Part shown: in pieces, positions 1,778 through 63,799 of the stretch
Layout of the letters: each line of letters starts with the position of its first letter
Position numbering within the stretch: the stretch's first letter is position 1
The notes under the pieces: generated by a model
The model's database searches: none
Seen by the model: only the letters and a program-made list of their open reading frames with translations
Told to the model about the DNA's origin: nothing
Program-made: the position numbers and the translations under genes
From: a virus
Reading direction: 5' to 3' (one strand)
Virus genome (UHGV): UHGV-1550212
DNA length: 64,000 bases

Positions 1778-2976
1778 TAACTGTCATACGACCAGTGACC
1801 ACAGTCATACACTGGCACAAATCCAGTGTCAAGCATTTCTTGCTCAATAAAGCCATCATCAAGCAAATGTTCACCTGACTTCGTATTGACCCAATGCTTC
1901 TTAATTGTGCATTCATCAACCACAAAGGGATTAAGTGCATTGTCAGTGCAATCAATGAACACATTATTCAAATGCGCGTCAATGACATGCAGCACAATTT
2001 CTGGGTTGTGCCAATCAAATATCATAAGTGGCGTGTAGCCACATACAATTGCAAGTTGTTGCTTCCACCAATGATAGTTTGGCTGTTTTGCTTCTGCGGC
2101 ATTTCGTTTAAAGCCATACACGCTATTATGAGTATGCGTCGGGTTAACGTCAATTAGCAGATTGCCATAATACAGGTCATATGATGTTATGCCAACATCA
2201 TGTTCAAACTCAAAATGCACACCAAGATGTTCTTCAATGTATGATTGCCACCATCTGTTTGGCGCAGATATGATTTGCCCATTTGCTTGCATACATTTAT
2301 TTGTCATGCAAAACCATGGCACACCGTAACGTTCCATACAGGTTTTTGAAATTGCAGCAAGCCATTCATCTTTGTCTCTATGCGGCCATGCATAACCATA
2401 ACGCAGACGACATGTTTGTTGAGCTTTAGCAACGATTGGCGCTAAACGTTCACCGTATATTTCACGTTTAGTTGCGATGGCTTTGCGTGGATTAGTCCAT
2501 CCAGCATCACCCCATCGCTCAAGCTTCGTTTGCTGAGATTTTTCAACAATCAGTTCAAGATTCTCACCATATTTTTGACGACGAGTTTGCATTGCTGCAA
2601 CATAATCTGTAATGCATCTATGGCCATACAAACGTTCTTTTGTCGCACTATGTGCTTTATCGCCATATGAACTGCCGTAGCGTGCAACTTTAGTGGCAAT
2701 TGTTTGCTTGATGTTGCCTGCTTTAGAACCATAACGAGCTTCTTTAGTTGCTACGCATTTTTGTTTGACTTCTGCTCTGTTCCAATTATGCTCAACGCCA
2801 TGTTTACGAAGATGGCCAATTTTCATGTTGTACACGTTTTTGATATGACCATGAGATGTCTTACGTGGTGCATATCGTACAAATGGTGTTTCTGCAAGCA
2901 ACTTATCTCGTTCAGCTTCAAGCTCTTTAATTCGAGCTTCAAGAGCTTCACCAGTCAAATGCTCTACATGTTTCAT
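1777..2976 (-). CDS. tandem-repeat protein (about 8 x TK..RYG-type units) with C-terminal nuclease-like domain; possible homing-endonuclease-like gene
   Basis: N-terminal coiled-coil LTGEALEARIKELEAERDKLL, then ~17-20 aa repeats (ATKEARYGSKAG, ATKVARYGSSYG, KYGENLE, RYGYAWP, ERYGVPWF), C-terminal LLIDVNP...H block. Paralog of 55801..56967 with identical 5' nucleotide stretch. Confidence 0.55.
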   Translation of the reverse strand: MKHVEHLTGEALEARIKELEAERDKLLAETPFVRYAPRKTSHGHIKNVYNMKIGHLRKHGVEHNWNRAEVKQKCVATKEARYGSKAGNIKQTIATKVARYGSSYGDKAHSATKERLYGHRCITDYVAAMQTRRQKYGENLELIVEKSQQTKLERWGDAGWTNPRKAIATKREIYGERLAPIVAKAQQTCRLRYGYAWPHRDKDEWLAAISKTCMERYGVPWFCMTNKCMQANGQIISAPNRWWQSYIEEHLGVHFEFEHDVGITSYDLYYGNLLIDVNPTHTHNSVYGFKRNAAEAKQPNYHWWKQQLAIVCGYTPLMIFDWHNPEIVLHVIDAHLNNVFIDCTDNALNPFVVDECTIKKHWVNTKSGEHLLDDGFIEQEMLDTGFVPVYDCGHWSYDS

Positions 2977-3473
2977 TCGTGTTTGCCAGTTTGAAATAAC
3001 GAATCAATTGGGATGTGAATACCAGGTTTGGATTGAATGTTCCATCCGCGCGCCAAACCATTAAGTACGCAGCTCGTAAGGTAAGAAAACGCGTTTTGAG
3101 TTACTGTTGGGTCAAACATTTGCCACTTTGACGCCAAAATTAACATGGCTTCTGCTGCGACATCTGCTTGTAAGTCTTTGTCCCTGTAGTATAAACGTCT
3201 CTGCACATGTTTGATAAGCAACTCAAACATGTGTATAAGTTTATTTGACAGCTGTCCAGATACTTTGCATGCGCATATTTCTGCACAAAGTTCTTTGCTG
3301 TTGATGTAATAGTTTGATGGCTGACCTCGCTTCTTTGTGTTTGCAGCTTCTTCACGAAGTTGGTCTTCAAGTTGTGTCAACATGTCATCATCTGACACGT
3401 ATTGAATATGCTTGTCTTCTGGTAGTTTAGATTCTATTGGTTGTAAGTTTTGCAGTGGCATAGCAGTGAGCAT
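2973..3473 (-). CDS. hypothetical protein (start trimmed)
   Basis: Track ORF begins at 3518 but would span the promoter at 3490-3518 and approach the terminator at 3523-3550; first ATG downstream of the -10 box is 3473. ATGA overlap with the downstream gene at 2973-2976. Confidence 0.45.
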   Translation of the reverse strand: MLTAMPLQNLQPIESKLPEDKHIQYVSDDDMLTQLEDQLREEAANTKKRGQPSNYYINSKELCAEICACKVSGQLSNKLIHMFELLIKHVQRRLYYRDKDLQADVAAEAMLILASKWQMFDPTVTQNAFSYLTSCVLNGLARGWNIQSKPGIHIPIDSLFQTGKHE

Positions 3474-3489
3474 TAAAATTCCTATATAA

Positions 3490-3518
3490 ATTGTACAACG
3501 CTTTGTGCACATTTGCAA
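3490..3518 (-). promoter_or_regulatory. sigma70-like promoter (TTGCAA-N17-TACAAT on coding strand)
   Basis: Plus-strand ATTGTA at 3490-3495 and TTGCAA at 3513-3518, spacer 17; upstream of 2973..3473. Confidence 0.5.
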
Positions 3519-3522
3519 TCAT

Positions 3523-3550
3523 AAAAAAGCTCAGCCAATTACGGCTGAGC
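3523..3550 (-). terminator. intrinsic terminator
   Basis: Perfect 8-bp stem GCTCAGCC/GGCTGAGC with 6-nt loop, followed on the minus strand by UUUUUU; downstream of 3578..4867. Confidence 0.6.
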
Positions 3551-3577
3551 TTTCATTGAGATGCGTCTTGTCTGCCA

Positions 3578-4867
3578 CTATTCTTTTGGCAGAAGTTCAG
3601 CAATGCGTGACTGCAATTGCTCTTTCTGCTTCAAGTAGCTATCAAGAATTTGCTGATGAGCTGCATAGCCCTCTGATGTCGGGTCCATGCTCTGCATTGT
3701 TACTTGAACTGCAGCAATGTCTGATTCAACATTATTGAGCACTGTTTGATATGCATCAACTTGTGCAGATGCACGAATTGCAGCTTTCATTGCAGTATCA
3801 TAATGTTCACGCCACATTGACTTGATGCATTCGATTTCTGGTGTGCTTACAGAAATTGACTGCAATGCTGCAATGAGTGCAACAATGCCGCCATACACTG
3901 TAATGATGCCAGACTGAGTATCAAGCATATTGAAGTGATTGCCATCAACTGCATATACAATGATAGGCGCAGATTGCAGCTTAACTGAATTGTCGAGAAC
4001 TGCAAGCTTTGTGAACTGCTGTGCTACTGCAATGACTGCATTGCAAATTGCCTCTGCAGTCTCAAATTCGCCAGCAACTTGCATGCTAACTTGATTGAGT
4101 TGCATATAAGTCTTGACTTTCTCAGCGAATTCAAGTGCAGTCATAACTTGTGAATCAAGCTCAACTGCATCTTGGCCAACAATGCGAACATGGCCGACAA
4201 TTGTGTCAGCAAAGAATGCTTCAGTCTTTGGACAATACTGAACAAGTGATATTGCATTCATCAATGCGATAGATTCTGCTGATGGCTCAGATGTTGTAGC
4301 ATACAGCAAATTGCCATCAGACACAGTGAACCACTTGCCAACTACAGGCAGACCCATGATGTCACCTGCAATAATTGCAAGCACATGCTGGCAATCACCT
4401 GTAGCAATGATGTGTTCGGGATTTGCTGCGTAGTAGATGTCTTTTGCCTGCTTAATGAGCGACTTCACCTCAGGGTACATGTCATAATTGTCAAGCACGC
4501 CATCAACTGCAATTGCTCGAATGATTGGCTCATCAGTTGATGCAACATCTACTGCATCTTCGATTGCTGACGCAGCCCTTTGCATATTTGCAGAGCCATC
4601 ACTCATCAAATCCTCCATGACAAGTGATGCTTTGAAGCCAAAGCCATCTGCACCAATTGCTGTTTTCTGTGATTTTGCAAATGCGCGTACAGCAGCATCT
4701 TTGCTATTTGCGGCGCTTTCCAAAATCAATGCAGCTTTTCGAAGAGTCAGACCAGACTTTTTGATTTGTGCAAGTGACTCATTGACAAAGTTTGCACCGC
4801 CAAAAGTCAATGCTTTGATGCCTTTGATACCTTGAACAAATGCATCAACGTTTACAGTATGTTTCAT
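3578..4867 (-). CDS. hypothetical protein with C-terminal coiled-coil
   Basis: 429-aa ORF followed by an intrinsic terminator; C-terminal heptad-like region (QQILDSYLKQKEQLQSRIAELL). Confidence 0.55.
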   Translation of the reverse strand: MKHTVNVDAFVQGIKGIKALTFGGANFVNESLAQIKKSGLTLRKAALILESAANSKDAAVRAFAKSQKTAIGADGFGFKASLVMEDLMSDGSANMQRAASAIEDAVDVASTDEPIIRAIAVDGVLDNYDMYPEVKSLIKQAKDIYYAANPEHIIATGDCQHVLAIIAGDIMGLPVVGKWFTVSDGNLLYATTSEPSAESIALMNAISLVQYCPKTEAFFADTIVGHVRIVGQDAVELDSQVMTALEFAEKVKTYMQLNQVSMQVAGEFETAEAICNAVIAVAQQFTKLAVLDNSVKLQSAPIIVYAVDGNHFNMLDTQSGIITVYGGIVALIAALQSISVSTPEIECIKSMWREHYDTAMKAAIRASAQVDAYQTVLNNVESDIAAVQVTMQSMDPTSEGYAAHQQILDSYLKQKEQLQSRIAELLPKE

Positions 4868-9215: not shown

Positions 9216-9707
9216 TCATTTACGTTTTTGTTTGACTCTTAATCGTTTTTGCATAAATGCTCTTGTAGCTTCACCAAAAGCCATCTCGTCTCGTTCGCCA
9301 CCACAAAGCTTTGCAAGCTTATTGAATGTGTCTTGGTCAATCATTGTGTACGTTGAGTTGTTGACCACATGCAATGCAAACTGAATCAGCGGTGCGCCTG
9401 GCTGCAAGCAGAATGGCTCTTTACCTGCATTGTACACTGCAAGATGAATCTCGCCATGATAGTCTGAATCTACAAACTCACTTGTTTTGATGATAAGATG
9501 ATTTCGTGAAATGCCCGACTTATTGTAGGCAATCAATGCATGACCGGCAGGCACAAGTGCTTTGATGCCAGATGGAATTGCAATGCCCTCACCAGGTTGC
9601 AGCATTGTTTGCACAAAATCATTGGGTATGCAAAAGTCCCATGCGCCAGATTCTGCTGTTGACTTAAAAGGACTTTCTACATTTCTGCATTTTGCAAAGA
9701 ATAACAT
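9216..9707 (-). CDS. dut: dUTP diphosphatase (dUTPase)
   Basis: dUTPase-like motifs SGAWDF, VDSDYHGEI, LIQFAL and C-terminal GGERDEMAFGEATRAF. Confidence 0.7.
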   Translation of the reverse strand: MLFFAKCRNVESPFKSTAESGAWDFCIPNDFVQTMLQPGEGIAIPSGIKALVPAGHALIAYNKSGISRNHLIIKTSEFVDSDYHGEIHLAVYNAGKEPFCLQPGAPLIQFALHVVNNSTYTMIDQDTFNKLAKLCGGERDEMAFGEATRAFMQKRLRVKQKRK

Positions 9708-12027: not shown

Positions 12028-12947
12028 TCTACAATAATTGTTGCAAGTTTGTTAATTGGCTGTATGAACACATCAAAACCCTTAACAGTGCCGAACGCGT
12101 TTCGTTTGACTGCATATAACATTGCAGTGTTCACATCATGCTTTGCATAACGAGTTTCAATGACTTGACTGATGTAGCCTTTTGAGTCTCGAATGTATTC
12201 TATGCTTGTAGCAATTTTGTTTGCTTTGATAGAATTTACTGTTATCAATGCATCATTCTGACCATACGCATATTGCATTGTTGCTGTAGATGGCTTTGCA
12301 GCATTTACACTTAACTGCTGAATGACTTGCATTTTGCGACCATGCGAATCATAGTAATATGTGAATGTGCATGGAAACTTGCCAACCAAACTGTTCAAAT
12401 GATGCAACTGCTCATAATGATAGCTGAACTGCACTACACTGCTATTAGATTCGCAAATGCTGCTTGGTCTATAGTAGCCATTGAAGTACCCATACTGAAT
12501 TGAGTATGTTTCAAAACGACCTCTACGATACAAACTCAACAAACTAAGCATATTCGTCGCTTCATCAATATGCAAGAACTTGATGTCTGCGCATGCATTG
12601 CTCTTGGCATAATCAGCTGCATTCCACTTATCAACGACTTTCCAAGAGTAGCATTTGATGCTTTGATTGCGCTCATTGACAAAGTGTATACCATTTGACT
12701 GCACCTTTACAATGTCATAGCAATTCAAATGCCCATTACTGTCAATGAATTTTTGCAGCCAATTTAAAGCCATGATGTTTGTTGCAAATGTCTGTGCAAA
12801 TGCAATTTGGCCATCTGCAAATGCTGCAGTGTATGTCTTGTTCTTATCGTAGATTGGCAATGTCGCATCTGCATATGATGCTGCTACAAATGCATAGCCA
12901 ATCACATTATTCTCAGAACTCAAATTAGAGTGTCTTAACTGTTCCAT
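12024..12947 (-). CDS. hypothetical protein
   Basis: 307-aa ORF; 4-nt overlap with downstream gene. Confidence 0.5.
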   Translation of the reverse strand: MEQLRHSNLSSENNVIGYAFVAASYADATLPIYDKNKTYTAAFADGQIAFAQTFATNIMALNWLQKFIDSNGHLNCYDIVKVQSNGIHFVNERNQSIKCYSWKVVDKWNAADYAKSNACADIKFLHIDEATNMLSLLSLYRRGRFETYSIQYGYFNGYYRPSSICESNSSVVQFSYHYEQLHHLNSLVGKFPCTFTYYYDSHGRKMQVIQQLSVNAAKPSTATMQYAYGQNDALITVNSIKANKIATSIEYIRDSKGYISQVIETRYAKHDVNTAMLYAVKRNAFGTVKGFDVFIQPINKLATIIVE

Positions 12948-13144
12948 GTGCCATTACGCTTACGACGTTCAATTTCTGCTTCAACGTCATCAATGTCGTG
13001 ATTTATTTGAGCAAGACGAATGTCATTGTCGTACTCTTTAAGCAATTGTTCAAACAAATCTTCTTTGAACTGCTTCAAACGTTCATTTGAAAATGCTCTT
13101 ACATTCATATCAAAGTCTACAGTCTTTTTCAAGTTTCTTGTCAT
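12935..13144 (-). CDS. hypothetical small protein
   Basis: 69-aa charged ORF in the gene array. Confidence 0.35.
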   Translation of the reverse strand: MTRNLKKTVDFDMNVRAFSNERLKQFKEDLFEQLLKEYDNDIRLAQINHDIDDVEAEIERRKRNGTWNS

Positions 13145-13679: not shown

Positions 13680-13722
13680 CTTATTTATGATTTGATGTCT
13701 TGTTATATTATTATATGTTGAT

Positions 13723-13751
13723 ATTGTACAACGCTAAGTGTCATTTTGCAC
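13723..13751 (-). promoter_or_regulatory. sigma70-like promoter (GTGCAA-N17-TACAAT)
   Basis: Upstream of 13110..13679. Confidence 0.5.
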
Positions 13752-16031: not shown

Positions 16032-19000
16032 CTATCGAACAATCGATGTAATTGATGCTACTGGTATCGTACCAATGATTGATGTAGTTGAGCGGAAGTC
16101 TGCATAGACTTTAATGTCAAATGTGAACTCCTTGCCACCAATGTAGCATATGAAATTCATTGTTTTTGTGTATGACAGCTTATTTTGCTGAGCATTGCTA
16201 TCAATATCAGATGAACCAACTGCATCAGTCATACGAGCTTGGAACAGCAATGGTATCAACAATGCATTATTTTCGCCAGGCTTAACTACATAAGCTGCAG
16301 AATCAGTGCTATTCGAAACTTGCATTTGATTGACTGCAGTTGGATTCAACAACAAGAATGCACCACGACTATTTGCACCAACTGCATAGACATCATTGTC
16401 TGTGAATGCACATTTAGGTGCGTTTTCTGCAGTAAGTTCAAGTGGCAGAATCTGCTGATACTTTGATTTGATGACAGAATTGAACTTAGCAAGCTCTGCA
16501 AATGCTGCAGTCAATGTTGCTTTTGTTTGTTCATTCTTATTTGCTGAGTATGCAATCCATGCTGGATGCTGAACAGACATCAGATTGTATGCATCTGGTG
16601 ATACTGTCGACTTCAATGCGATTGCTTCATAATCATCGCCATTCTTATGAACGAACTTGCGATTTGCTGCTTGTGCAGAAGTATCAATGTTTTGTGTTTC
16701 TACAGTAGACGATGATGGTGTTTCTGCAGCAACGTACAGCTTTTCTGTGCCTGCTACGTTTTTCAAGCCAGCATACAATGTTTGACCCATGTATTGACGA
16801 GTGCCATACGGTGCTAAGATGTCATTGCTGTCATATGCATCGCTGTTAAGTACAACAGGTACGTCATAGACATCTGCGAAATCTTGCAGCTTGTCTGTAA
16901 TATGCTGTGACAAGTCGCCATGATATCGTGGGTACAATGAGATGTTTTCTGCACCAATGTTGTAGAACTTCAACCAATATTGTCGAGTAAGCACTTTGCC
17001 ATAGTTGTCTGCTGAAGTGATGTCAAACTTATCTGCATAAGTGCCTGCAAACAAAACATTGCTTGACCCATTCAGAATTTCTGTTTGATTGCCCTCATCA
17101 TCTACAATTGCGACTCGAAGCATTGAGCCTTGATTCAAAATGATGTCTTTGAGCTGCGCAACTTCATTGCTAAGCGACAGTAGTTTTTCATATGTAGTCA
17201 CTTTTGCAAGCTCTGATGTGAAGAAGCCTGATGCAATGTTTTGAGCATTGTGGGCGTAGTAGATGTTGTTTTCTGAGAATGCATCTGCAATATGCTTGAT
17301 AAGTCCTTTGTTCTCAAGCATATTTTCAAGAGCCACATTTTGCTTATCAATTGCAAGTTCATCTTTAAGCGTGACGAACATTGCAGAAGCTGCAAGACTT
17401 TCTGGGAACTGAATGCTGACAATGTTTGACCACTCAGACTCATTGAGCACGTTTGGATAGCCTGCTTCACCAATCGCCTTAACGCGGAACTGAACAATCT
17501 CATTAGCAGAAATTGGAATTTCAAGCTGATTGCATGAGATTGCGTCAATTGATTCTGAATTGATTGGCTCCCATTGAATGCTACCATCGACAATGATTTT
17601 GCGACGAAGTGGCGTAAATACTTCATTCCATGTGCTAAATGCTGCTGTCGTAATTGTGCCTGCTGCATTTTCGATGTCAAATGTGTCTGCCTTTGCTACT
17701 GTGCCATTCAATGATGCATATCTGTACTGCACCTTGAATTGCACAATGTTTTGTGCTGCAGTAAACCTACTGATTGCAGGGTCTTGTACCGGTAAGAAGC
17801 CTCGAACTCTGAACTTTGGATTGTACAATGCGTCATATGCAGCACCATTGATATTCAGCATCTCATCAATGATATTTGTGAGTGTTTGCAGTCGTTCTGC
17901 TCTTTGCTGAGTCAATGTAACATATTGTGTAGATGCTTTTTGACGTTCAACGTCATTCTTGAAATTATTTGTATTGAGCTTTGACATCACAGATGCGATA
18001 TCAGAGTCAAGTACCGACATTTCTTGCTGAACTGCTCGTTTTTGATTGTACAATGACAAAATTCGAGATTTGTCAGTGTTGTCAATCAAATGCGTGTTAA
18101 GTTGAATGACTTTGAATGCTTCTGCTGACAATTGTAGACGATTTGGCTTAATTGCATATTGCGATGGCGCAAGCATATCAGTAGTCAATGCTGCAATATA
18201 AGCGCCAATTGATGCGTCGCCATGTGACAACATATACGAGTTTGCATTGACAAGCTCATTTGTTGCAGTACGAATTGTAAGTGTTGCAGTGTCAATCAAA
18301 ACTGCTGGGCTGTACTGAGCTACTGTGTTGTATGCATCATGCACAGGCGACAAGAACAGCACGAATTTTTCAGAATGTCGAAGTGGCACTTCAACGACTT
18401 TTCTAACAACAGGCTCTACAAAGACGAGGTCAGTGACTTCTACATTCAATGCATTCAAGCCTGCAGTACGCTGCAGTATGCATGTTTGTGACAGTTTGTC
18501 AATTGAGACAATTTGCAGTAATACTGAACCAGTCGGGTCTGATAACGTGTCACCGACTTTCAATGTCAGTGAACCGGCAGCCTTTGCGTCAATTGCATCA
18601 TATACAATGCTGTCAAGTTTGACAGCGATTGTGCCATTGTTCGCATTTTGCTTCTTGAGAATTTTGAAGCTGCCACTTGATGCTGCTCGTCGTGGTCGCA
18701 AATTAACTGTGAAGTCTTCAAGAGTATAGTCATCATCAGTATGCCAGCCATGCGCATCAATTTCAGCAAGCAATGCAGCATGGCTCATTTCAATGCCTGT
18801 TTGTGCCACAATTTGCTGCAATGCAGCAAACATGGCGTCTGAGCATATGTACTTTGTAACTTGACATTGTTTAAGATACGATGATGCTTGACCAGTCACA
18901 TCAATTTGCACGTGCATACCAAGCGCTGTTGTGCGTTCAAGCATATCATTGCCAAGTGCGACAACATTGTTATCTTCTGCTATCGTGCCTTGCAAAGTTT

Positions 19001-19423: not shown

Positions 19424-20317
19424 CTATGTCAATGCAATAAAGACATCACCAGATTGCTCAGCCTCAAGCTCTTTTTCAACTGTCTGTTGCATTGTTTGAC
19501 CTTTTGACGCAAGTCTATCAAAGTTAATGCGAACATTGCCGGGCAACTTGAAGTCATATGTGCCAATGATATCTGCAAGTTCTTGCATGCATTGACCAGT
19601 GCAGTATCTCAAGAAACGTCTGTCTTCATACAATGACTGCAGTGGCACTCTTACCCAACACATCAACACCAAATCAGACCCTTCATTGTCACCAAGAATG
19701 TTCAGCTTATGACTAAATCTGTTGAAGTTATACGTGATTGTTCGTTGCAAAATGCTTTCATACGTGCCAATTTCATACATTGTCACCCACAAGTCATCTG
19801 CAATTGATGCATTTTGAGAACCTGCAGGCCCAGCGTAGTTAAATGACACACCGTTTGCTTCACTGTAAAAGTTAATTGAGTTGCTAAGCAGTCGTTCAAG
19901 ATAAAAGTTTGCACGACGCATTGACAGCTTATGCTGTGATTCAAGCAACTGCACATCTGATACAGCCCAGATTTGTGGCGGCAATTTGACAATTTTGTTT
20001 GCACCATCAGTCATGTCAATATCGCGAACAACAAACCAGCGCTCTTCAAGAGCAGACTCAGAATGTTCAAAAAACCATTCTGCGCATGTTTCAATGATTT
20101 GCGGCATACGAGTCTTCGGAATTGCAAAGGGCAATGCACAGCCTCGTGTGACTTCTTGAACAAGTCGCTCAATGAATCGCAAGTCTACACTGTAGTCGTA
20201 TTTAGAATTGATATTTTCGACTTCAGGCTTATTGCACTCATTTGTTGTTGCGCCTTCGACTTTCCAAGAAGTTGCGCCGTCATTGATTGGTGGCGCTGGT
20301 TTACGTTGAACTTTCAT
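19424..20317 (-). CDS. hypothetical protein
   Basis: 297-aa ORF followed by a terminator at 19366-19400. Confidence 0.5.
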   Translation of the reverse strand: MKVQRKPAPPINDGATSWKVEGATTNECNKPEVENINSKYDYSVDLRFIERLVQEVTRGCALPFAIPKTRMPQIIETCAEWFFEHSESALEERWFVVRDIDMTDGANKIVKLPPQIWAVSDVQLLESQHKLSMRRANFYLERLLSNSINFYSEANGVSFNYAGPAGSQNASIADDLWVTMYEIGTYESILQRTITYNFNRFSHKLNILGDNEGSDLVLMCWVRVPLQSLYEDRRFLRYCTGQCMQELADIIGTYDFKLPGNVRINFDRLASKGQTMQQTVEKELEAEQSGDVFIALT

Positions 20318-20375: not shown

Positions 20376-20933
20376 CTACGGTATGATGTTGAAATTGACT
20401 GCAAGCAACAATGATGTGACATCTTCGCCCAATGGAAATGAACCTGTAGTAAAACCAACTGTTTTTGTTTGTGTATATTGGCTGCTCAAATCGAAGTAGT
20501 ATTGTGATGGCGACAATTCTGGTGTAGCATGCGGCTCAGTTTGACCATTTCGAACAACCATCAATCGTACTGGACCATTGAATGTTGCTTTATGATTCGG
20601 CAATGCAGAACCGTTGTAGTTAAGCGACATGTATTGCATCGTAATTCGAATCTGCTCAGCATATGATTTGCTAAGGTCAAGTTGCTGAGTGCCTTGAACA
20701 CGTAGAATACTTGATTGTCCAGATGACTGCCAATTTGCATACACAGATTGCTCGTTGGTCGTTATGATGGCATTGCCATCAATATCGAGTAGTTCAACAG
20801 TCATCTGACCTGTCAAGCTGATTCGATTGCCAAGATTGTTGCCTACTACTGCAATGCTAACTGAAACGGGCTTCAAAGACCCCCCCTGCGCCACATTTTG
20901 TGAACGATAGTGGTCTTGTGTAACTGTTGACAT
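20376..20933 (-). CDS. hypothetical protein with 5' poly-G tract (paralog 1)
   Basis: Track start is a TTG; first ATG at 20933 gives MSTVTQDHYRSQNVAQGGS; a G7 run (coding strand) at 20880-20886 encodes the Gly-Gly. Confidence 0.5.
   Translation of the reverse strand: MSTVTQDHYRSQNVAQGGSLKPVSVSIAVVGNNLGNRISLTGQMTVELLDIDGNAIITTNEQSVYANWQSSGQSSILRVQGTQQLDLSKSYAEQIRITMQYMSLNYNGSALPNHKATFNGPVRLMVVRNGQTEPHATPELSPSQYYFDLSSQYTQTKTVGFTTGSFPLGEDVTSLLLAVNFNIIP
20880..20886 (-). repeat. homopolymeric G7 tract (coding strand) in 5' coding region
   Basis: C7 on plus strand; codons for Gly-Gly at residues 16-17 of 20376..20933. Confidence 0.8.
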
Positions 20934-20980
20934 ATCATAAAGTGTTTTGCGATGATGCAATCCACTTTATGAATGCATCA

Positions 20981-21352
20981 TCAGTTAAATAATGTTTGAA
21001 TTTTTATTGTAACGTCATTGCAGCCTTTTAGCAAGTCGACTTGAATCATATCGACAAATGCTGAACGATAACTTAAACCATTGCTGTACTGAACGTAAAA
21101 GTACTTGATATGCTCCCAATCATTTACGCAAGCTTTCGTAAAGTTATCTGACAACTGAATGCTTGTTGCTGATAGAGTCGTACATGCAACGTACGAATCA
21201 ACAAATATATGCAAGTCATTTACATTGATGTAACCAACGACATCAAGTTGATTTGTAAACGTGCTCAGCGGCAATGTCAGTATGATGTGGCCTAACTTAA
21301 CAGAGCCCCCCGCGTTTTGTGAACGATAGTGGTCTTGAGTAACGTGTGACAT
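20981..21352 (-). CDS. hypothetical protein with 5' poly-G tract (paralog 2)
   Basis: ATG at 21352 gives MSHVTQDHYRSQNAGGS; G6 run at 21306-21311; 5' nucleotides near-identical to 20376..20933. Confidence 0.5.
   Translation of the reverse strand: MSHVTQDHYRSQNAGGSVKLGHIILTLPLSTFTNQLDVVGYINVNDLHIFVDSYVACTTLSATSIQLSDNFTKACVNDWEHIKYFYVQYSNGLSYRSAFVDMIQVDLLKGCNDVTIKIQTLFN
21306..21311 (-). repeat. homopolymeric G6 tract (coding strand) in 5' coding region
   Basis: C6 on plus strand; residues 15-16 of 20981..21352. Confidence 0.8.
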
Positions 21353-21383: not shown

Positions 21384-21995
21384 TTATGGTGTAATAATCG
21401 GTCCACCGCCAGGCAAACTTGAACATGTTTGCATATATGTGTACAACAAGTTACCTGCATTTTGCATAATGTTTGCAAACATCAATGTGATGCCTCGCAA
21501 ATCTGCTTCGCCTTCAAATGTGTTGATGAACGCTTGCTGTGCACATGCAAACATTACTGGCACAGTCGATGCACTTGTCATTGCAATCACAGGACCGCCA
21601 GGCGACAAGGGCAACACTGGTGGCGATGCAGGCACAGTTAAGTTTGTTGGAATCCATGCTGCAACTGCTGCAGCATAAGGCTTAAAGCCATTGCCAAACT
21701 TTATTGCAATGTTCTTTGGGTCTGCTTCACCTTGAAACGTTTCTATAAGTGCTTGTCTGCCTGCTTCAAATAAAGATTGCTCAAGTGCAGCAGTTGGACC
21801 TGCAGTTATTGGACCGCCAACAGGCAATCCTGTGCAAGTTGCAATGTAGCTTGCTACGCCTGTTGCAAACAATTGACTGAACTTGTTGGCAAACTTTGTC
21901 GCAATTTGTGGTCTATCATGCTCACCTTGAAAAGTTGCAGTATATGCTTGATATGCAATAGGCTGCACAGCAGCTTGCAATGTGGCACCTGGCAT
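21384..21995 (-). CDS. protein with three tandem ~70-aa repeats
   Basis: Repeats TFQGEHDRPQIATKFANKF / TFQGEADPKNIAIKFGNGF / TFEGEADLRGITLMFANIM, each followed by a PxGGP segment; start set to the ATG abutting the upstream stop. Confidence 0.5.
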   Translation of the reverse strand: MPGATLQAAVQPIAYQAYTATFQGEHDRPQIATKFANKFSQLFATGVASYIATCTGLPVGGPITAGPTAALEQSLFEAGRQALIETFQGEADPKNIAIKFGNGFKPYAAAVAAWIPTNLTVPASPPVLPLSPGGPVIAMTSASTVPVMFACAQQAFINTFEGEADLRGITLMFANIMQNAGNLLYTYMQTCSSLPGGGPIITP

Positions 21996-26672: not shown

Positions 26673-27938
26673 TTACCGATATTTGATGTGCCATGGCCGC
26701 ATAAATGCACATACATTGATGCGGTTTGCATACACATATCGAAGCATTGCAACTGCATTGCTGACATCACTTACTGCAGCAGGTTCATAATTTGCATGCC
26801 CGCCAATCTTGGCATTCAAAGCATCACGAGTAACTGGCGTAAGACTGCCATTTCTGAGTTCAGGCCATAATTGTGCTGCAAGTGATGCATTGTTTACAAT
26901 GGCTTGCTTATGAAAGATTGCGTTTTCTCGTGCGTTCTTTTTGCAATTTGACTGCCACATGCCATATACGAAGTATGGCTGATGCATAACCACACAATTG
27001 CCAGATAACTGCAAAATTGCATGTACAAAGTCGATTGCAGTATCTGCGTCAAGACCCTTTGTTTTGCAGTCATTGTAGTCAATATTGTACAGCTTCAGCC
27101 ACTCTGCATCGAACAACTCATACGGGTCATTGATGTAAATGTGCTTGAACCACAGCAGCTCTGCATCAGAAGACATCACTGCAATATCTACTTGTGCAAT
27201 ACGCTGCCAGTCATTGTCAAATATGCTGCTTGGGATGTTGTCATGCTTTGCGCCACTGTAGCATGTCATTGCTGCTGTACAATGCAGCATTGGCCAAACT
27301 TGAAGTCGCTTGCAACATTCAGCAAAGACATCTGCACATGCATTGACATCAGCAAGAGCATCATGAGCGGATTCAAAGTCATGACCAAACAAGCCTCGAT
27401 ATGCATCTACAAGTTTTGCAGACCCATTGCTCAAATGCTTTGCAAAGCCTTTGTACAGAAACTTCGTGTCAATGACGGGGTATTGAGTCATAAAGTTTGC
27501 AGTTTTGCAACGCTGACATTCATAATCAAGAATCGTCAAGTCATACGGCGCATTGTGTGCAATGAGATGTGTTACGCCAAAACGTTCCAAGTCAAGTCTG
27601 AACTGGTCAAGCACTTTTTGCATGGGCTCTCCATGTTCATACAACTGCTCCATAGTATGACCATGCACAGCAAGAGCTTCTGCTGGCATATCATCAAAAC
27701 TGCTGTTGAATCTGCCAAGTGGCATTACAAGCATGTTGTTTCGATGCAGTTCTATAATGTTGCCCGCATAGTCAAGTCTGAAGATTTTGTATGCAAGCTG
27801 AACTACAAATGACATCTCTCGCAAGTCAATGACATCTTGCTTGTGATAATAGTCAACTGCTAAGCCTGTTGACTCAGTATCTATGCATGCGCATATCAGC
27901 TCTGTGATATGCTCTTTACTTTTATTGATATGTTCCAT
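26673..27938 (-). CDS. DEDDh-type 3'-5' exonuclease domain protein (DnaQ-like) with extra C-terminal domain
   Basis: Exo I CIDTESTGL, Exo II HNAPYDL, Exo III HDALADV. Confidence 0.7.
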   Translation of the reverse strand: MEHINKSKEHITELICACIDTESTGLAVDYYHKQDVIDLREMSFVVQLAYKIFRLDYAGNIIELHRNNMLVMPLGRFNSSFDDMPAEALAVHGHTMEQLYEHGEPMQKVLDQFRLDLERFGVTHLIAHNAPYDLTILDYECQRCKTANFMTQYPVIDTKFLYKGFAKHLSNGSAKLVDAYRGLFGHDFESAHDALADVNACADVFAECCKRLQVWPMLHCTAAMTCYSGAKHDNIPSSIFDNDWQRIAQVDIAVMSSDAELLWFKHIYINDPYELFDAEWLKLYNIDYNDCKTKGLDADTAIDFVHAILQLSGNCVVMHQPYFVYGMWQSNCKKNARENAIFHKQAIVNNASLAAQLWPELRNGSLTPVTRDALNAKIGGHANYEPAAVSDVSNAVAMLRYVYANRINVCAFMRPWHIKYR

Positions 27939-27940
27939 GC

Positions 27941-28606
27941 TTATGAGATTTTTTCTGCAATCAAGCCAGATGTAAAATCAGGATGGAACTGCAGAGGCCC
28001 ATTATCAATGACATTGATTTCAATATGGTTGCCATCGATGTCTATGACAGATGCTTTGTCAAAGCCTACAGGGCTATTGTAGATGTATGCAGTGCCTGAT
28101 TTGTCAATGACAATGTCACCATGAACAAAGTACTCACGTTCAGTTACTGCAAAGCCTCCGCAAGTTGCAGCATTGTTTGAATCTTGTTCGACATCGTAGT
28201 CAGCTTTCAATGCTTGTGCAAGTATAATGACATTTTTGTTGTACTTTCTGCGGCCAATAGGTGTGTCAATCATATTGATGAGCGACACAATCTTATCTTG
28301 CGGCGACATGTTCATAGCAGCATATTGCAATGCAGACACATAATACAACAATGTTTCAGTGCCATCATTGTCAATGCGAATTTGACAAATATCGCCAATT
28401 GCGATGTCATCAATATTGATGCAGACAACATGTTTAACATTGAATGTTTCATTACGATGCATTGACTTGACTACAATTTTCGTAATTACATTGTCATAAT
28501 CTCTTTCGATATGTGCTACTGTACAAATGTACATATCGTCATGCTCTGTAAAGCGATATTGTTTACTCATATGTGTAAGTGTGAAGTTGTTCAAAAACGT
28601 CTTCAA
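27941..28606 (-). CDS. hypothetical protein
   Basis: 221-aa ORF. Confidence 0.5.
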   Translation of the reverse strand: MKTFLNNFTLTHMSKQYRFTEHDDMYICTVAHIERDYDNVITKIVVKSMHRNETFNVKHVVCINIDDIAIGDICQIRIDNDGTETLLYYVSALQYAAMNMSPQDKIVSLINMIDTPIGRRKYNKNVIILAQALKADYDVEQDSNNAATCGGFAVTEREYFVHGDIVIDKSGTAYIYNSPVGFDKASVIDIDGNHIEINVIDNGPLQFHPDFTSGLIAEKIS

Positions 28607-39789: not shown

Positions 39790-39818
39790 ATTGTACAACA
39801 TATGTTATCATTTTGCAA
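39790..39818 (-). promoter_or_regulatory. sigma70-like promoter (TTGCAA-N17-TACAAT)
   Basis: Upstream of the SbcD-SbcC gene; leader contains the conserved element. Confidence 0.55.
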
Positions 39819-43481: not shown

Positions 43482-43530
43482 TGGCAGGTTTCTTGCTTTG
43501 TAAAGCTTGGATAGAGGATGGATTTTATAT
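43431..43530 (-). ncRNA. candidate ~100-nt small RNA or transcription attenuator (speculative)
   Basis: Defined only by promoter (-10 at 43537-43542) upstream and a strong hairpin/U6 terminator at its 3' end; no sequence family recognised. Confidence 0.2.
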
Positions 43531-43536
43531 GTTGAT

Positions 43537-43565
43537 ATTGTACAACATGCAAAATGCATTTGCAT
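43537..43565 (-). promoter_or_regulatory. sigma70-like promoter (ATGCAA-N17-TACAAT) with adjacent 17-bp tandem repeats
   Basis: Followed ~55 nt downstream by the terminator-like hairpin 43438-43481. Confidence 0.4.
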
Positions 43566-56967: not shown

Positions 56968-57719
56968 TTCACTTCAGGTTTTGCTTGCTTGGCCAACTCA
57001 GCTTCAGCATTGAACTCTTTGCCCTCAGCTTTCATTGTTTCAGCATAAGTCTTTTCATCAGTGTAACGTTCTACGCCATCACCAAGCAGTTTTGCAACTT
57101 CATCATCTGCTTCAAACAATGGCTGTGGATTGTCATCATTGTCATCTTTGAGTTGCTCAAATGTGCTGTTATGCTTTTCTGCAATTTTGATGAGGTCAAC
57201 GATTGAACGAGTTACGAGTTCACCATTGATGCCTGACTGTTGTTCAGATTGACCAGTGCCTTGTTGCAATTCTGCTTGAGTTGCTCGAACATTATTATTG
57301 AGTGATGCAAGTACATTGGGAAGAGTTCGACAATATGATATATATTGCTGAACCAACGACATTGCATCATTCTGCAGTTTGATGAGAAACGCAAACTCAC
57401 CCATGCCTCCGCCTTGTGCATCAATGCGCTCGAATACTGAATCAAGTGCATGCATTGCATAGAACACTTGTTTGCAAAGTAAATTGATGTTTGTCTTCTC
57501 CATCTCAATTGATGCATCGATAAATGGCGACTTAACATCTGCTGCTATGCACAATTTGCGAACTTCATCAACGTATTTTGAACACTTGTCAAGTGTCTTG
57601 TCAAGTTTGCTTCGGTCAAACTGCTTGTAAACTTCTAACGCATCGCTTACTTCTGCAGCATCCAATATTGCATTTGCTGCAGCCAATTCTGATTCTCTGC
57701 TCATCTCAAAATGGTCCAA
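56964..57719 (-). CDS. hypothetical acidic protein
   Basis: 251-aa ORF with ATGA overlap to the upstream gene. Confidence 0.45.
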   Translation of the reverse strand: MDHFEMSRESELAAANAILDAAEVSDALEVYKQFDRSKLDKTLDKCSKYVDEVRKLCIAADVKSPFIDASIEMEKTNINLLCKQVFYAMHALDSVFERIDAQGGGMGEFAFLIKLQNDAMSLVQQYISYCRTLPNVLASLNNNVRATQAELQQGTGQSEQQSGINGELVTRSIVDLIKIAEKHNSTFEQLKDDNDDNPQPLFEADDEVAKLLGDGVERYTDEKTYAETMKAEGKEFNAEAELAKQAKPEVK

Positions 57720-58315
57720 GCTTCAATAATTGCTGAAAAATCTTCAAATGACATCGTAGTATAGCCTGCGTCGCCCCAAGATACACCCCAGCTATTCTTG
57801 ATGATGAATGCGTCTTTTGTGTAGCCCACAATTGACACTGCATGACCACCAAAATTACCATCGCCTTTCCAGAAATGCTCAGCTTCAATGTCTTTTACGA
57901 GCATGCCAACAAATACAGGCCCATTTGCCACAACAGCAGATTTGACTTCATCAATTGTGTAACAACGTCTATATGCAGTTATTGGCAATTGCTCTGAGCC
58001 CTTTGACATCTTGATTGGCTGCGCTTTGAGCAACTTAAAGACGTCACGTGGAATCATGCCCTCTTGAGGCGCATTTGAACGACGCTCATACAATGCTTTG
58101 ATGTCAAGCTTGCCTTGCATAGACAGCACAGAAGACCACCAGTCAATCATTGTTGCTGCTGTGTAAGCTGCACACATTGATGTACTGCCTTGGTCTTCTA
58201 CTTGAAGTTGAGCCAACTTGTACACAAGTGGCAAATCAGTTTTTGCATCAAAACGCAAGTCTCTGTCATCTTTAGGTGACTGGATGTAGCCCAGTCCATA
58301 TGTTGTATGTTTCAT
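57701..58315 (-). CDS. papain-like (C1 family) cysteine peptidase
   Basis: Catalytic-triad contexts QGSTSMCAAY (Cys), GGHAVSIVGY (His), IKNSWGVSWGDAGY (Asn-Ser-Trp). Confidence 0.65.
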   Translation of the reverse strand: MKHTTYGLGYIQSPKDDRDLRFDAKTDLPLVYKLAQLQVEDQGSTSMCAAYTAATMIDWWSSVLSMQGKLDIKALYERRSNAPQEGMIPRDVFKLLKAQPIKMSKGSEQLPITAYRRCYTIDEVKSAVVANGPVFVGMLVKDIEAEHFWKGDGNFGGHAVSIVGYTKDAFIIKNSWGVSWGDAGYTTMSFEDFSAIIEAWTILR

Positions 58316-61156: not shown

Positions 61157-61255
61157 TAATTTAATATATATAATATGTCAATAAATTTCACATACAAAAG
61201 TCTTTTCGCTTATGAAAACTACTCAACTCTGGTTTGAACGCCAGCAGTCAATCGC

Positions 61256-61262
61256 GGGGGGG
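61256..61262 (+). repeat. homopolymeric G7 tract separating upstream ATG from the main ORF
   Basis: ATG at 61212 and ORF 61280..61912 are in different frames across this tract. Confidence 0.8.
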
Positions 61263-61279
61263 CTCTTCGTGACACAGGC

Positions 61280-61912
61280 GTGCACATATATGTGCGTGAC
61301 AATGCTGATAACATTGTTAATGGGTTAGCTTGCTATTTACACTGTATTGAAACAGGGCGAACACTTCAAAGAGGCTTGTATACAAGCAATAATGGTGATG
61401 GCGTCACATTTTACATAACTGGTGATGACTATAAGCAATTAGTCGGTTCAACAAAAGATGCACAGTTTTATCTTATTGACACACCTGATGCTGCAAATAT
61501 GTCTTGGTTATCTGTAGCATTTACACTTAGATATGGCGCAGATATTGCTAACAACACACTAAATGTCAATATTGAAGCGTTCAAATCATGCGAAGTAACA
61601 ATAACTAACAGTGGCAATACATGCAGTTGCACCGCAATGCTTGAATGCAAGTTGCCAGCGGCAATTAAACTGTCAACAATTTGCAATACATCAGTAGCAT
61701 CTAATGTCAATGTGTCAGTTAATATAACAGCAAATAGCTTGGCTGCTAATTTTAGAGTTGGCAATAGCTTATCTGCAAAATTGACACATGTCGGCATATG
61801 GTCTATTGCTAATGCTTCTTATGTTTCACCAATATATGAGGGCGCTATAATTGTAAGAACACTGTCTGACATATTTCATGTGTTCATAACAGATAATACA
61901 ACACTTGCCTAA
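61280..61912 (+). CDS. hypothetical protein; likely phase-variable (5' ATG at 61212 is out of frame across a G7 tract)
   Basis: Track ORF starts at a GTG; an upstream ATG (61212) reads MKTTQLWFERQQSIAGG through the G7 run at 61256-61262 and stops at 61328; one extra G would fuse it to this ORF. Confidence 0.4.
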   Translation: MHIYVRDNADNIVNGLACYLHCIETGRTLQRGLYTSNNGDGVTFYITGDDYKQLVGSTKDAQFYLIDTPDAANMSWLSVAFTLRYGADIANNTLNVNIEAFKSCEVTITNSGNTCSCTAMLECKLPAAIKLSTICNTSVASNVNVSVNITANSLAANFRVGNSLSAKLTHVGIWSIANASYVSPIYEGAIIVRTLSDIFHVFITDNTTLA

Positions 61913-61937: not shown

Positions 61938-62435
61938 ATGAACATTACAATGAACTGGGGGGGCTCTAAATTAGTCTACCTGCAGCTTGTTATTGGTGAT
62001 GCTTCATTGTACAACTTTGGCACTACTGAAACAATGGCGATACAAGGTACAATATCGCTTGACAATGTGGCAGTTAACATACCAACGTCAGGCTTTCCTA
62101 TCAAAATGATGGAATGCCGCGGTGGTGAAACTTACGCCATTGGTGCGTTAATGATGCCAAAAGCTTATGACTACTCAAACTTTGCTGCAAAAATTGGCTT
62201 TGGCTGTTATGCAGCAGATGGCCGTGGCACCGGCAATATTTACAACATCAATGCGTATGCCAACATCAACAGCACAAGCCCTGGTGGCAATCCTATACTG
62301 TTAACTTCTATGGCATGGCAGTATCCATTGGGTGTTGGTGATAAGTTTACATTGCCAATGTCAAACCCATCTGTCAAAGTTAACAATGGAGATATCGTGT
62401 CAATCATACTTAAGAATGCAAAGAAAGTCAGCTAA
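61938..62435 (+). CDS. hypothetical protein with 5' poly-G tract (in frame)
   Basis: MNITMNWGGS...; G7 run at 61957-61963 in codons 7-9; followed by a plus-strand terminator. Confidence 0.5.
   Translation: MNITMNWGGSKLVYLQLVIGDASLYNFGTTETMAIQGTISLDNVAVNIPTSGFPIKMMECRGGETYAIGALMMPKAYDYSNFAAKIGFGCYAADGRGTGNIYNINAYANINSTSPGGNPILLTSMAWQYPLGVGDKFTLPMSNPSVKVNNGDIVSIILKNAKKVS
61957..61963 (+). repeat. homopolymeric G7 tract in 5' coding region
   Basis: Codons 7-9 (W-G-G) of 61938..62435. Confidence 0.8.
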
Positions 62436-62495: not shown

Positions 62496-62500
62496 TGTTA

Positions 62501-62552
62501 TTTGCAAGTGGAGTTGTCACCCACCTCAGCACAATTTGGCGACCTCATTGAT
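62501..62552. repeat. 52-bp direct repeat, copy 1
   Basis: TTTGCAAGTGGAGTTGTCACCCACCTCAGCACAATTTGGCGACCTCATTGAT; identical except one base to 62586-62637. Confidence 0.75.
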
Positions 62553-62585
62553 GTTAATAAACATCATTCAGTGGTTGATGACTTG

Positions 62586-62637
62586 TTTGCATGTGGAGTT
62601 GTCACCCACCTCAGCACAATTTGGCGACCTCATTGAT
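62586..62637. repeat. 52-bp direct repeat, copy 2
   Basis: TTTGCATGTGGAGTTGTCACCCACCTCAGCACAATTTGGCGACCTCATTGAT; period 85 bp; in the convergent intergenic region 62496-62737. Confidence 0.75.
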
Positions 62638-62797: not shown

Positions 62798-63799
62798 CTA
62801 TTTTGCTGGCACAGCAATTATTCCACTTGGAACAGTTGTTATAATGCCTCCATTTTCATCTTTAACTATTTCTGTGGGTGTCCATGTTTCACCATCTATT
62901 GATGTTGTTATCATATTAACATATTTGGAATAACTATTATTCCAAGAACGGCCGACAGCAATAAACATTTCACCATTATATATGACATCCATCCAATTAC
63001 CATTAACATCTGTGGTGAATTTTGTCCAAGTTTGTCCATCATTGGATGTAAAAATATGCCCGTTAGAACTACTACATACGAATTTACCATTGCCAAACGC
63101 CATTCCATATCCTATAAGCATACTCGACGGTACTGCATATTTTGACCAAGTTGTACCATCAGTAGACACTCCAATATATGTACTACCATTGCCCATTGTA
63201 ACAAACCTGCCATTGCCATACGCAATTGACAACAAACCGTGACTTGAATCAAACCATTTCGGCGTTGTCCAACTTGTCCCATTGGCGGAGGTTGATATAC
63301 GGCCACTACTACCAACCACTACGAATTTACTATTACCGTATGCAATATCAGCCCAATTATATGTAGCAGAGGAATCTACTTTATAAGTTGTCCAATTTGT
63401 ACCATCAGTGGATACTGCGATATAACTATATTGGCCACAGACAACAAATTTTCCATTCGCATATATAATTCCATTCCATGTATAAGAAGAACCTGCTATT
63501 TGTTTCGGCGTTGTCCAATTCACGCCATCGGTTGACGTTGTTACATATCCATTCGCACCAACAGCTACGTATTTTCCATTACCATATGCAATGGCATTCC
63601 AACCATTTGTACCAACTACTGCCATAATGTTTTCTTCGATTTTAATTGTTCTTAAATCTTCGGTCAACGGCGGAGTAGTCGGTTCTTCCGGCTTTTCAAT
63701 AGGTGGTTCTACCGGCTCATCAAATCCCCCCCCGTCATTTTTCTCGCAGGATGCACACATCCAAGCACATACCGCAATGCAAATCATCTTTTTAATCAT
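62798..63799 (-). CDS. BNR/Asp-box repeat (beta-propeller-like) lipoprotein with 5' poly-G tract
   Basis: Lipoprotein-type signal MIKKMICIAVCAWMCASC; six repeats each with S-x-D-G-x-x-W-T (STDGVNWT, STDGTNWT, VSTDGTTWS...); G8 run at 63726-63733 encodes NDGGGF. Confidence 0.6.
   Translation of the reverse strand: MIKKMICIAVCAWMCASCEKNDGGGFDEPVEPPIEKPEEPTTPPLTEDLRTIKIEENIMAVVGTNGWNAIAYGNGKYVAVGANGYVTTSTDGVNWTTPKQIAGSSYTWNGIIYANGKFVVCGQYSYIAVSTDGTNWTTYKVDSSATYNWADIAYGNSKFVVVGSSGRISTSANGTSWTTPKWFDSSHGLLSIAYGNGRFVTMGNGSTYIGVSTDGTTWSKYAVPSSMLIGYGMAFGNGKFVCSSSNGHIFTSNDGQTWTKFTTDVNGNWMDVIYNGEMFIAVGRSWNNSYSKYVNMITTSIDGETWTPTEIVKDENGGIITTVPSGIIAVPAK
63726..63733 (-). repeat. homopolymeric G8 tract (coding strand) in 5' coding region
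   Basis: C8 on plus strand; encodes GGG just after the lipoprotein signal peptide of 62798..63799. Confidence 0.8.

Follow-up and report, generated by a model that had tools for sequence, protein, structure and literature searches.

Homopolymer phase variation is a classic bacterial strategy, as in the contingency loci of bacteria, which include poly-G tracts in surface genes of Campylobacter, Neisseria and Haemophilus and CTCTT in the signal-peptide region of Neisseria opa. To our knowledge, experimental evidence for homopolymer phase variation in phages has come so far from Campylobacter phages and, through a recent preprint, from T-even phages. In the Campylobacter phages (Fletchervirus and Firehammervirus), a change in tract length reportedly turns a gene product on or off, with several such tracts in each genome, and phenotypically mixed progeny have been proposed. 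These hypermutable poly-G tracts are attributed to Sorensen et al. 2021 (Cell Rep 35:109214), as cited in PMC12823448 and PMC10877375. In T2 and T4, homopolymers of at least 6 nt show elevated, reversible frameshifts, for which bet-hedging was proposed (Gomez, Barrick and Waters, bioRxiv 10.1101/2025.10.21.683753); there are 168-191 such repeats per genome, in all gene classes and positions, and the characterised ones are A runs. Here we describe G runs at the 5′ ends of small genes in UHGV virus genome UHGV-1550212, of which we analysed a stretch of 64,000 nucleotides (the window). It forms the terminal 64 kb of a viral contig that was assembled from a JGI metagenome and is 174,628 bp long. 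The tracts are probably hypermutable frame switches, that is, a system of slipped-strand phase variation in a cassette gene family.

The window was compared with relatives from ENA and Logan assemblies of human metagenomes and with JGI contigs, referred to by L numbers where they have to be told apart; a sister contig of 175,564 bp from the same metagenome is about 95% identical to the source. We counted the G/C homopolymers of the window and found three G4 and fourteen C4 runs, none of exactly 5 nt and five of at least 6 nt (6-8). Under a first-order Markov model, about 0.37 runs of at least 6 nt are expected (observed 5) and about 2.9 of exactly 5 nt (observed 0), so that by our own arithmetic from the Markov expectation the five long runs have a Poisson P of about 4e-5. 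Since A/T runs are likewise fewer than expected in the window, the genome appears to avoid homopolymers in general. The genes that carry the five runs, with their tracts and leaders, are as follows.

20376..20933, minus strand: gene A, 185 aa, beginning MSTVTQDHYRSQNVAQGGSLKP; leader MSTVTQDHYRSQN, then VAQ-GG-S and an all-beta body; in frame (ON)
20895..20933, minus strand: leader module of gene A, codons 1-13, MSTVTQDHYRSQN
20880..20886, minus strand: tract of gene A, C7 on the plus strand and G7 in sense, CAG GGG GGG TCT, codons 16-18
20981..21352, minus strand: gene B, 123 aa, beginning MSHVTQDHYRSQNAGGSVKL; leader MSHVTQDHYRSQN, then A-GG-S and a body unlike that of A; in frame (ON)
21314..21352, minus strand: leader module of gene B, codons 1-13
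21306..21311, minus strand: tract of gene B, C6 on the plus strand and G6 in sense, GCG GGG GGC TCT, codons 14-16
61212..61912, plus strand: locus 3, opening with ATG 61212 and leader MKTTQLWFERQQSIAGG; past the tract, a body of 216 codons is read in frame -1; OFF as sequenced
61256..61262, plus strand: tract of locus 3, G7, codons 15-17
61938..62435, plus strand: locus 4, 165 aa, leader MNITMNWGG followed by the body; in frame (ON)
61957..61963, plus strand: tract of locus 4, G7, codons 7-9
62798..63799, minus strand: locus 5, in frame (ON); predicted lipoprotein of 333 aa, MIKKMICIAVCAWMCASC-EKND-GGG-FDE..., whose body is repetitive and resembles a beta-propeller
63726..63733, minus strand: tract of locus 5, C8 on the plus strand and G8 in sense, codons 23-25, directly after the Cys of a lipobox assigned by eye

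Each of the five tracts thus reads as poly-G in the sense orientation, inside codons 1-25 of its gene. The first-pass annotation had described A and B as having near-identical 5′ ends with G7 and G6 in their first 20 codons, which we confirmed by re-reading sequence and coordinates, and had named these five loci as the only G/C runs of at least 6 nt in the window, in agreement with the census. Its placing of all tracts in 5′ coding regions holds for position and strand, the tract at 61256 being out of frame with its ATG, and its description of the window as AT-rich holds in moderate measure only, at a GC content of 40.4%.

The tracts are also unusual in their codons. GGG is the rarest Gly codon (6%), and among the 37 Gly-Gly pairs in 60 open reading frames (ORFs) GGG-GGN is used solely by the tract genes; therefore, the tract is not a by-product of a requirement for Gly-Gly. 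A double-glycine leader or cleavage site as the reason for Gly-Gly was considered and is not supported, as every frame of a G run gives Gly-Gly, C-type cassettes (see below) are without it, and elsewhere in the genome GGC or GGT is used for such pairs. Gly-Gly leaders are the cleavage sites of C39 peptidases; the window holds a papain-like cysteine peptidase gene (57701-58315, minus strand; PF00112, with a faint Peptidase_C39_2 listing in a relative), for which no link to the cassettes was established. A common post-tract motif was rejected, CTCT following three of the five tracts and failing across the wider set.

Half of the source genome (87.6 kb) was scanned in full and held no additional G/C run of at least 6 nt. 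The other half, sampled only by a pattern search for the locus-3 leader, yielded at least four more tracts (G6-G10), again at leader-body junctions. Three of the cassettes of the source genome that lie outside the window are given here.

Cassette Y: locus-3 leader, G6, body not in frame with the ATG
NW-type cassette: leader MQIPRNWGG, G9, in frame, 118 aa
Cassette X: leader MTFKLNWGGG, G10, 39-aa ORF only

Beside the portal gene of the same genome lies a further NW-type cassette; its tract is interrupted (G5TG4), and its frame is off by one base. In total, the source genome has at least nine tracts and one interrupted tract, all of them at leader-body junctions.

We then examined whether tract length varies between genomes. 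Among relatives the tracts range from G5 to G10, with interrupted forms in addition, and comprise in-frame and out-of-frame alleles. L006, a 176-kb assembly of the same phage as the window from a different sample, differs from it over 12,064 nt by one single-nucleotide polymorphism and by the length of the locus-3 tract, which is the sole indel. Similarly, a cassette with the locus-4 body shows 0 mismatches over 2,183 nt between the 181-kb contig L031 and L032/L033, which come from other samples, and the sole difference is G7 versus G8. At locus 3, the tract is G7 in the window, L007 and L008, G6 in L006 and L009, and G8 in L030. With G7, the frame of ATG 61212 stops after 38 codons, and G8 is needed for a 233-aa protein; the G8 allele of L030 is this ON form (P0043, 233 aa).

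The relatives at the A/B locus are 84-94% identical to the window and show the same kind of variation. B-type genes are in frame with G6 (window, L010) and G3TG5 (L011), and out of frame with G5 (L012, stop after 20 codons) and G8 (L003). A-type genes are in frame with G7 (window, five assemblies), GGGGAGG (L005, L011) and, in another context, G6 (L003, L004), and out of frame with GGGGGAGG (L012), G6 (L034) and, on a distant A-type body, G7 (L013). For gene A itself, G7 and G10 are in frame with the main ATG, and G6 and G8 give 28-34 aa from it. NW-type tracts occur as G7, G9, G10, G5TG4 and G5AG4, and neither G7 nor G8 brings the locus-4 body into frame where it follows a locus-3-like leader. 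Gene calls shortened at the N-terminus are numerous in the 90% clusters of A and locus 4, with lengths of 166 aa (start MKPVSV) and 133 aa (start Met33), which is what gene callers produce when a leader is out of frame.

It is highly improbable that these tract lengths are artefacts of sequencing or assembly. Some platforms do make errors in homopolymers, and the data are metagenome consensus sequences, in which G9-G10 are least reliable; however, the tract sites are identical across projects and assemblers (JGI, ENA, Logan), L032 and L033 agree on G10, G9 and G8 although they stem from different samples and pipelines, and GGGGAGG, G3TG5 and G5TG4 are substitutions, not length miscalls. Slipped-strand phase variation, one of the two readings offered in the first-pass annotation, is thus supported by length polymorphism between near-identical genomes, by in- and out-of-frame alleles and by intact bodies in the OFF state.

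In the mechanism that we propose, at least ten small cassette genes, A and B among them, would form a family, each with a leader of 8-17 codons, a sense-strand poly-G tract of 6-10 nt and a variable, mostly beta-rich body. During replication, a tract would gain or lose G by slipped-strand mispairing, which would shift the body in or out of frame with the leader ATG, and translation of an out-of-frame allele from that ATG would end after 18-56 aa. Given about ten tracts that switch independently, each burst would contain many ON/OFF combinations, and such mixed progeny would probably amount to bet-hedging. Switching would be frequent and reversible within a population, and of adaptive value.

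The tracts coincide with a boundary between conserved and exchanged sequence. A and B have only about 60 nt in common: the leader MS(T/H)VTQDHYRSQN, then the tract, then Ser-x-Lys. Two copies of the 29-nt leader core GTTACNCAAGACCACTATCGTTCACAAAA, and no more, are present in the window, compared to 0 in 100 shuffles. An alignment of A with B by BLASTP is leader-driven and covers residues 1-51 only, and self-BLAST of the region gives the leader duplication only. Hence, the adjacent paralog pair of the first-pass annotation is overstated: the 5′ module of about 60 nt (about 19 codons) is homologous, and the bodies are unrelated by BLASTP and self-BLAST. Paralogy among the bodies of A, B and loci 3, 4 and 5 was rejected as well, as BLASTP finds nothing past the leaders. 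There are three leader types, namely MS.VTQDHYRSQN, MKT.Q.WFERQQ..A and ....NW. The A/B cassettes occupy a slot between two conserved genes, which, together with the spacer within the slot, are as follows.

21384..21995, minus strand: left flank, 203-aa protein with three internal repeats (FQGE.D...IA.KFAN...GGP)
20934..20980, minus strand: spacer between B and A, with a perfect 9-bp inverted repeat GATGATGCA...TGCATCATC and an alternative ATG, ATGATATG
19424..20317, minus strand: right flank, T4 gp13-like neck/head-tail adaptor gene (PHROG 211, E 4e-9; PF26809 on the called gene)

The 203-aa gene lies upstream of the slot in all relatives, and the B-A spacer is 100% identical in L011 and L012. 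The 203-aa protein has no Pfam match and could, as pure speculation, be considered a candidate partner for the leader peptide.

The contents of the slot differ between strains. The window, L011 and L012 have B then A, and L005 has A only. L010 has B′ then C, in which the B′ body is 40% identical to B behind an identical 16-aa leader and the C body (159 aa) follows the same leader with no tract. L013 has A′ then C′, L022 has D, whose body of 169 aa is new and in frame at G7, followed by C, and the sister genome has C only, with TAA in the leader. Thus, a single leader is combined with four or more unrelated bodies, namely A, B, C and D. The homologs of gene B are P0005-P0007; P0007 has the identical 16-aa leader and a body that is only 40% identical. 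In the sister genome (L018, about 9410-9560), between the 203-aa gene and the C cassette, three short direct repeats CA.AAGTTGATAGATA.A are found where the source has cassette B.

The second leader type has been distributed in the same way, the locus-3 leader being present on the bodies L3, Y and Z and, in a variant form, on the locus-4 body. The accessory locus of the sister contig has four G7 tracts. Besides the locus-3 gene and a leader MTFKLNWGG, it contains two fusions: the locus-4 body behind a locus-3-like leader (MKTPQFWFERQQGLAGG), and the new 259-aa body Y behind the promoter and leader of locus 3 itself (99% over 111 nt). Ten leader copies of the first type write Arg10 as AGA, AGG, CGC or CGT and have synonymous variants at Val4, Thr5, His8 and Asn13 too, and the WFERQQ stretch shows four synonymous changes between variants. 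Since the codons change while the amino acids stay the same, the leader is constrained as a peptide.

The breakpoints of exchange lie at the tract. BLAST alignments of L010, L013 and L022 to the window end at 21306, in the B tract, and resume at 20317, the start codon of the gp13-like gene. Contrary to this, in the comparison of B with L011 and L012 the leader has diverged like the flanks (5 differences in 39 nt) and the first ~57 nt past the tract are identical, which we read from the alignments as the reverse of the pattern in L010, L013 and L022 with the same joint at the B tract. The cassette-like 5′ modules of the first-pass annotation, offered there as an alternative to phase variation, are supported by a leader on at least four unrelated bodies, by its conservation at the peptide level and by homology that ends at the tract; phase variation and the cassette module are two parts of one system. 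Leader and tract would form a portable 5′ module, and strains would swap bodies by recombination with the left breakpoint at the tract. A bolder proposal, which we consider rather doubtful, is that leader and poly-G do three jobs at once, as N-terminal docking or targeting peptide, as stochastic ON/OFF switch and as recombination joint. The peptide would then direct unrelated small beta-rich proteins to a single virion site or to a shared export or assembly route, and strains would capture and exchange new bodies via the joint. If this were true, one genotype could give up to ~2^10 combinations of surface or accessory proteins, and the module would be a viral counterpart of the bacterial phase-variable adhesin families in an uncultured human-gut Bacteroidota phage.

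We next compared the divergence of the cassettes with that of their surroundings. Between the window and L011 or L012, the flanking genes have synonymous divergence (dS) of 0.28-0.34 and ratios of nonsynonymous to synonymous divergence (dN/dS) of 0.03-0.05, whereas these genome pairs give, for bodies A and B, a dS of 0.015-0.045, about ten-fold lower than in the flanks, and a dN/dS of 1.8-9.5. B differs from its L011 counterpart by 1 synonymous and 32 nonsynonymous changes (binomial P ~0.004 versus a neutral ratio, our own estimate), and A from that of L005 by 6.5 synonymous and 50.5 nonsynonymous changes. The low dS implies that the cassette has recently been exchanged between diverged backbones, and the nonsynonymous excess suggests diversifying selection, or at least strongly relaxed constraint; after exchange, the bodies of A and B would thus diversify quickly. 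A diversity-generating retroelement as the source of this divergence is unlikely, since self-BLAST of the cassette region against the window returned the leader duplicate only, with no template-like repeat, and the substitutions in the region are mostly transitions in both directions. It was rejected on the grounds of no template repeat in the window and no adenine-specific pattern, no genome-wide search for a reverse transcriptase gene having been made.

For locus 3, A and B, the assemblies contain both ON and OFF alleles, and the OFF alleles retain full-length body ORFs. The locus-3 body, OFF in both genomes, has a dN/dS of 0.31 relative to the sister genome, and the locus-4 body, OFF in the sister genome, has a dN/dS of 0.10. 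These values indicate that OFF alleles are not simply dead and that the locus-3 and locus-4 bodies are under purifying selection.

Several findings weigh against phase-variable switching. All sequences are consensus assemblies, which give the majority state only. The tracts are invariant among near-identical assemblies for A (five), B (at least two), locus 4 (four) and locus 5 (two, the G8 being present in L006 as well), and the locus-4 body with a locus-3-like leader is OFF in all five assemblies examined. A length change does not always silence a gene, either: A at G8 and locus 3 at G6 bring another start codon into frame. In A at G8, the body is in frame with the second ATG, ATGATATG (20934-20941), 5 nt upstream of the A start, and the ATG of AAATGTGG (20887-20896), 10 nt before the tract, would also give a full-length body. 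At locus 5, G6 or G9 puts ATGAC (63734-63738), 5 nt upstream of the tract, in frame, with a predicted form without signal peptide as the result. In some states of a tract, the outcome may thus be a protein with another N-terminus and not a silenced gene. The X cassette, with its 39-aa ORF only, gives no clean ON/OFF, and a tract away from the leader-body junctions, the sole one seen, is found in L010, where a G6 (17509-17514) lies near the 3′ end of a small membrane-protein ORF; the window (~13760) has GGCGGC there, one base shorter, and hence a different C-terminus. PHROG and Pfam searches of A, B, C, D, locus 3, locus 4 and Y gave no family match, and the fold matches are to a generic beta-sandwich only. 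Finally, there are signs of decay, namely nonsense codons (TAA) in A of L011 and in the C-type leader of the sister genome, and a remnant B cassette in L003.

In the X cassette at L037 525-644 (minus strand) and L021 4381-4497 (G7 or G10), the ORF of ~39 aa is followed after ~18 nt by the ATG of another gene, which encodes 135 aa and has an N-terminus like that of tail fibres (MAVQTRSVLKTYFETGDKPTSAQFGDL.DS); the X tract may control this gene through translational coupling.

The signs of decay would fit an explanation in which the tracts are mutational hot spots in dispensable, decaying genes, not selected switches, and cassette turnover is gene loss and gain. Degenerate X cassettes point the same way, as do strains whose slot has one cassette or none (L005, L018), and the dN/dS above 1 of A and B could partly reflect relaxed constraint. 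We nevertheless consider this explanation unlikely. It leaves unexplained why, in a genome that avoids runs, those of at least 6 nt are confined to the sense strand, to the first 25 codons and to the rarest Gly codon. In addition, the full-length OFF bodies and the low dN/dS of loci 3 and 4 argue against it, the 1 synonymous versus 32 nonsynonymous changes of B exceed the neutral ratio, and ON and OFF forms of one allele exist in near-identical genomes.

Another possibility is recoding from a fixed genotype, in which ribosomal frameshifting on G GGG GGG or RNA-polymerase slippage would allow OFF alleles to be expressed after all. That polymerases slip on long homopolymers is established, for several cassettes all assemblies show the OFF state, and the 0-frame of locus 3, GC-G GGG GGG, formally matches the X XXY YYZ heptamer, its body being read in frame -1. 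However, the needed shift would be -1 for locus 3, Y, Z and B of L012, and +1 for A′ of L013, A of L012, the locus-4 body at G7 and the interrupted portal-side cassette. No stable RNA structure was found after the five tracts (~77 nt folded each, z +0.4 to +1.8 versus shuffles), the tract lengths vary in the DNA itself, and in-frame genotypes exist. Since shifts in both directions would be required, RNA structure is lacking and the DNA varies, slipped-strand change is favoured over programmed ribosomal frameshifting, and recoding as a whole, in which transcriptional slippage may have a part, appears quite unlikely.

As for the function of the cassettes, their products may act at the virion or host surface, a suggestion in which we have somewhat less than even confidence. 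It rests on the location of A and B between a baseplate-hub-like gene (PF04717 weak, PHROG 37871) and the gp13-like neck gene, on the BACON-domain proteins and the gene with a tail-fibre-like N-terminus that adjoin the cassettes of the accessory locus, and on the predicted lipoprotein signal of one family member. The leader would be a docking or targeting peptide. Structure prediction gave a confident beta-sandwich for A, with a disordered leader and matches to generic sandwich domains, and a weak AlphaFold2 model for B (predicted local distance difference test score, pLDDT, of 74, reached by one of five models). A HMMER search with A over 1.84 billion representatives returned two real relatives and a weak match to an immunoglobulin-like repeat protein. 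Locus 5 has weak BNR_2 and DUF6242 matches, under the Pfam cut-offs. Between the convergent locus-4 and lipoprotein genes, there are two direct repeats of ~55 bp (62498-62552 and 62583-62637; GCAAGTGGAGTTGTCACCCACCTCAGCACAATTTGGCGACCTCATTGAT...).

The source of the window is, from its sequence relationships, a human-gut jumbo phage of ~175 kb that would be distantly related to the MA9V, PAU, Tenacibaculum PTm1 and Lak phages. An adjacent 1113-aa protein is 23-31% identical to proteins of jumbo phages (Chryseobacterium MA9V-1/MA9V-2, Sphingomonas PAU, Tenacibaculum phages and Lak megaphages), the annotation of these distant relatives being uninformative. This kinship, the relatives in human metagenomes, a BACON-domain protein encoded by the sister contig and the lipoprotein-type signal of locus 5 point to a Bacteroidota-type host. 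A search of 50,697 phage records gave zero matches for the region by megablast and zero for gene A by tblastn at E <= 0.01. A scan for the leader found the source contig only in IMG/VR, and one true relative and two chance matches in metagenomes.

Some further features of this phage were seen. Just past position 64000, which is the end of the source contig, L006 has an IS1595-family transposase gene (12111-13031; PF12762, PF12760) that may be the reason why the JGI contig ends there. A 25-nt motif, CATGTTGTACAATATCAACATATAA (minus strand), occurs in the window at ~13705-13730, ~39790-39817 and 43525-43549, intergenic and upstream of minus-strand genes, and may be a phage promoter or regulatory element. 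L010 carries an insertion of ~1 kb (2832-3737; window ~27896-27942) that encodes a protein with a Tn7 TnsA-like N-terminal endonuclease domain and has no counterpart at the window site; it is probably a mobile or homing endonuclease gene, and TnsA-like domains are found elsewhere in the source genome as well.

If phase variation of the cassettes is confirmed, one gut phage genome would stand for a cloud of expression states, which would bear on host-range prediction, on coexistence with Bacteroidota and on the design of phage therapy. The cassettes would be concrete candidates for receptor-binding or anti-defence proteins, and annotation pipelines would have to handle tract genes, which gene callers shorten or miss, as the 133-aa and 166-aa calls illustrate.

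Compared with the known systems, the tracts most resemble different systems in different respects. The T4 internal-protein (IP) cassettes, which Repoila and colleagues are said to have described in 1994, reportedly have an N-terminal capsid targeting sequence. They share with the present family a leader of ~10-15 aa common to unrelated small proteins at polymorphic loci, and thereby provide an analogy for the role of the leader; unlike in T4, no L/I-x-E motif is visible at the leader end here, and the T4 IP genes are without a homopolymer switch. As in the Campylobacter phages, there are poly-G tracts in coding genes of a phage, several per genome, with ON/OFF states based on length. The host phylum is different, the present phage being a jumbo phage of 40% GC, and neither the tblastn search with A (E <= 0.01) nor the PHROG and Pfam searches of A, B, locus 3 and locus 4 gave a match that would indicate homology with the Campylobacter phages. 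Moreover, unlike in those phages, the tracts lie at the junction of a leader and a swappable body, within a gene family with shuffled leaders and bodies, for which receptor binding is only a candidate role.

The bacterial contingency loci are similar in having a 5′ coding repeat, a frameshift switch, an over-represented repeat and a multigene surface-type family with diversifying selection on its products. We found in the phage, as in such loci, a repeat within the coding sequence, over-representation, polymorphism with identical flanks, and both ON and OFF states in nature. In contrast to the bacterial loci, these are virus-encoded, and switching would occur in phage replication by the phage's own family B polymerase. 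T2 and T4 share homopolymers of at least 6 nt in phage genes; unlike in these phages, homopolymers are depleted here, and a small set of G runs occupies one defined position of a dedicated gene family. Hence, what appears to be new is a homopolymer-avoiding gut jumbo phage that has G runs at one position of a dedicated, recombining and, for A and B, fast-evolving gene family.

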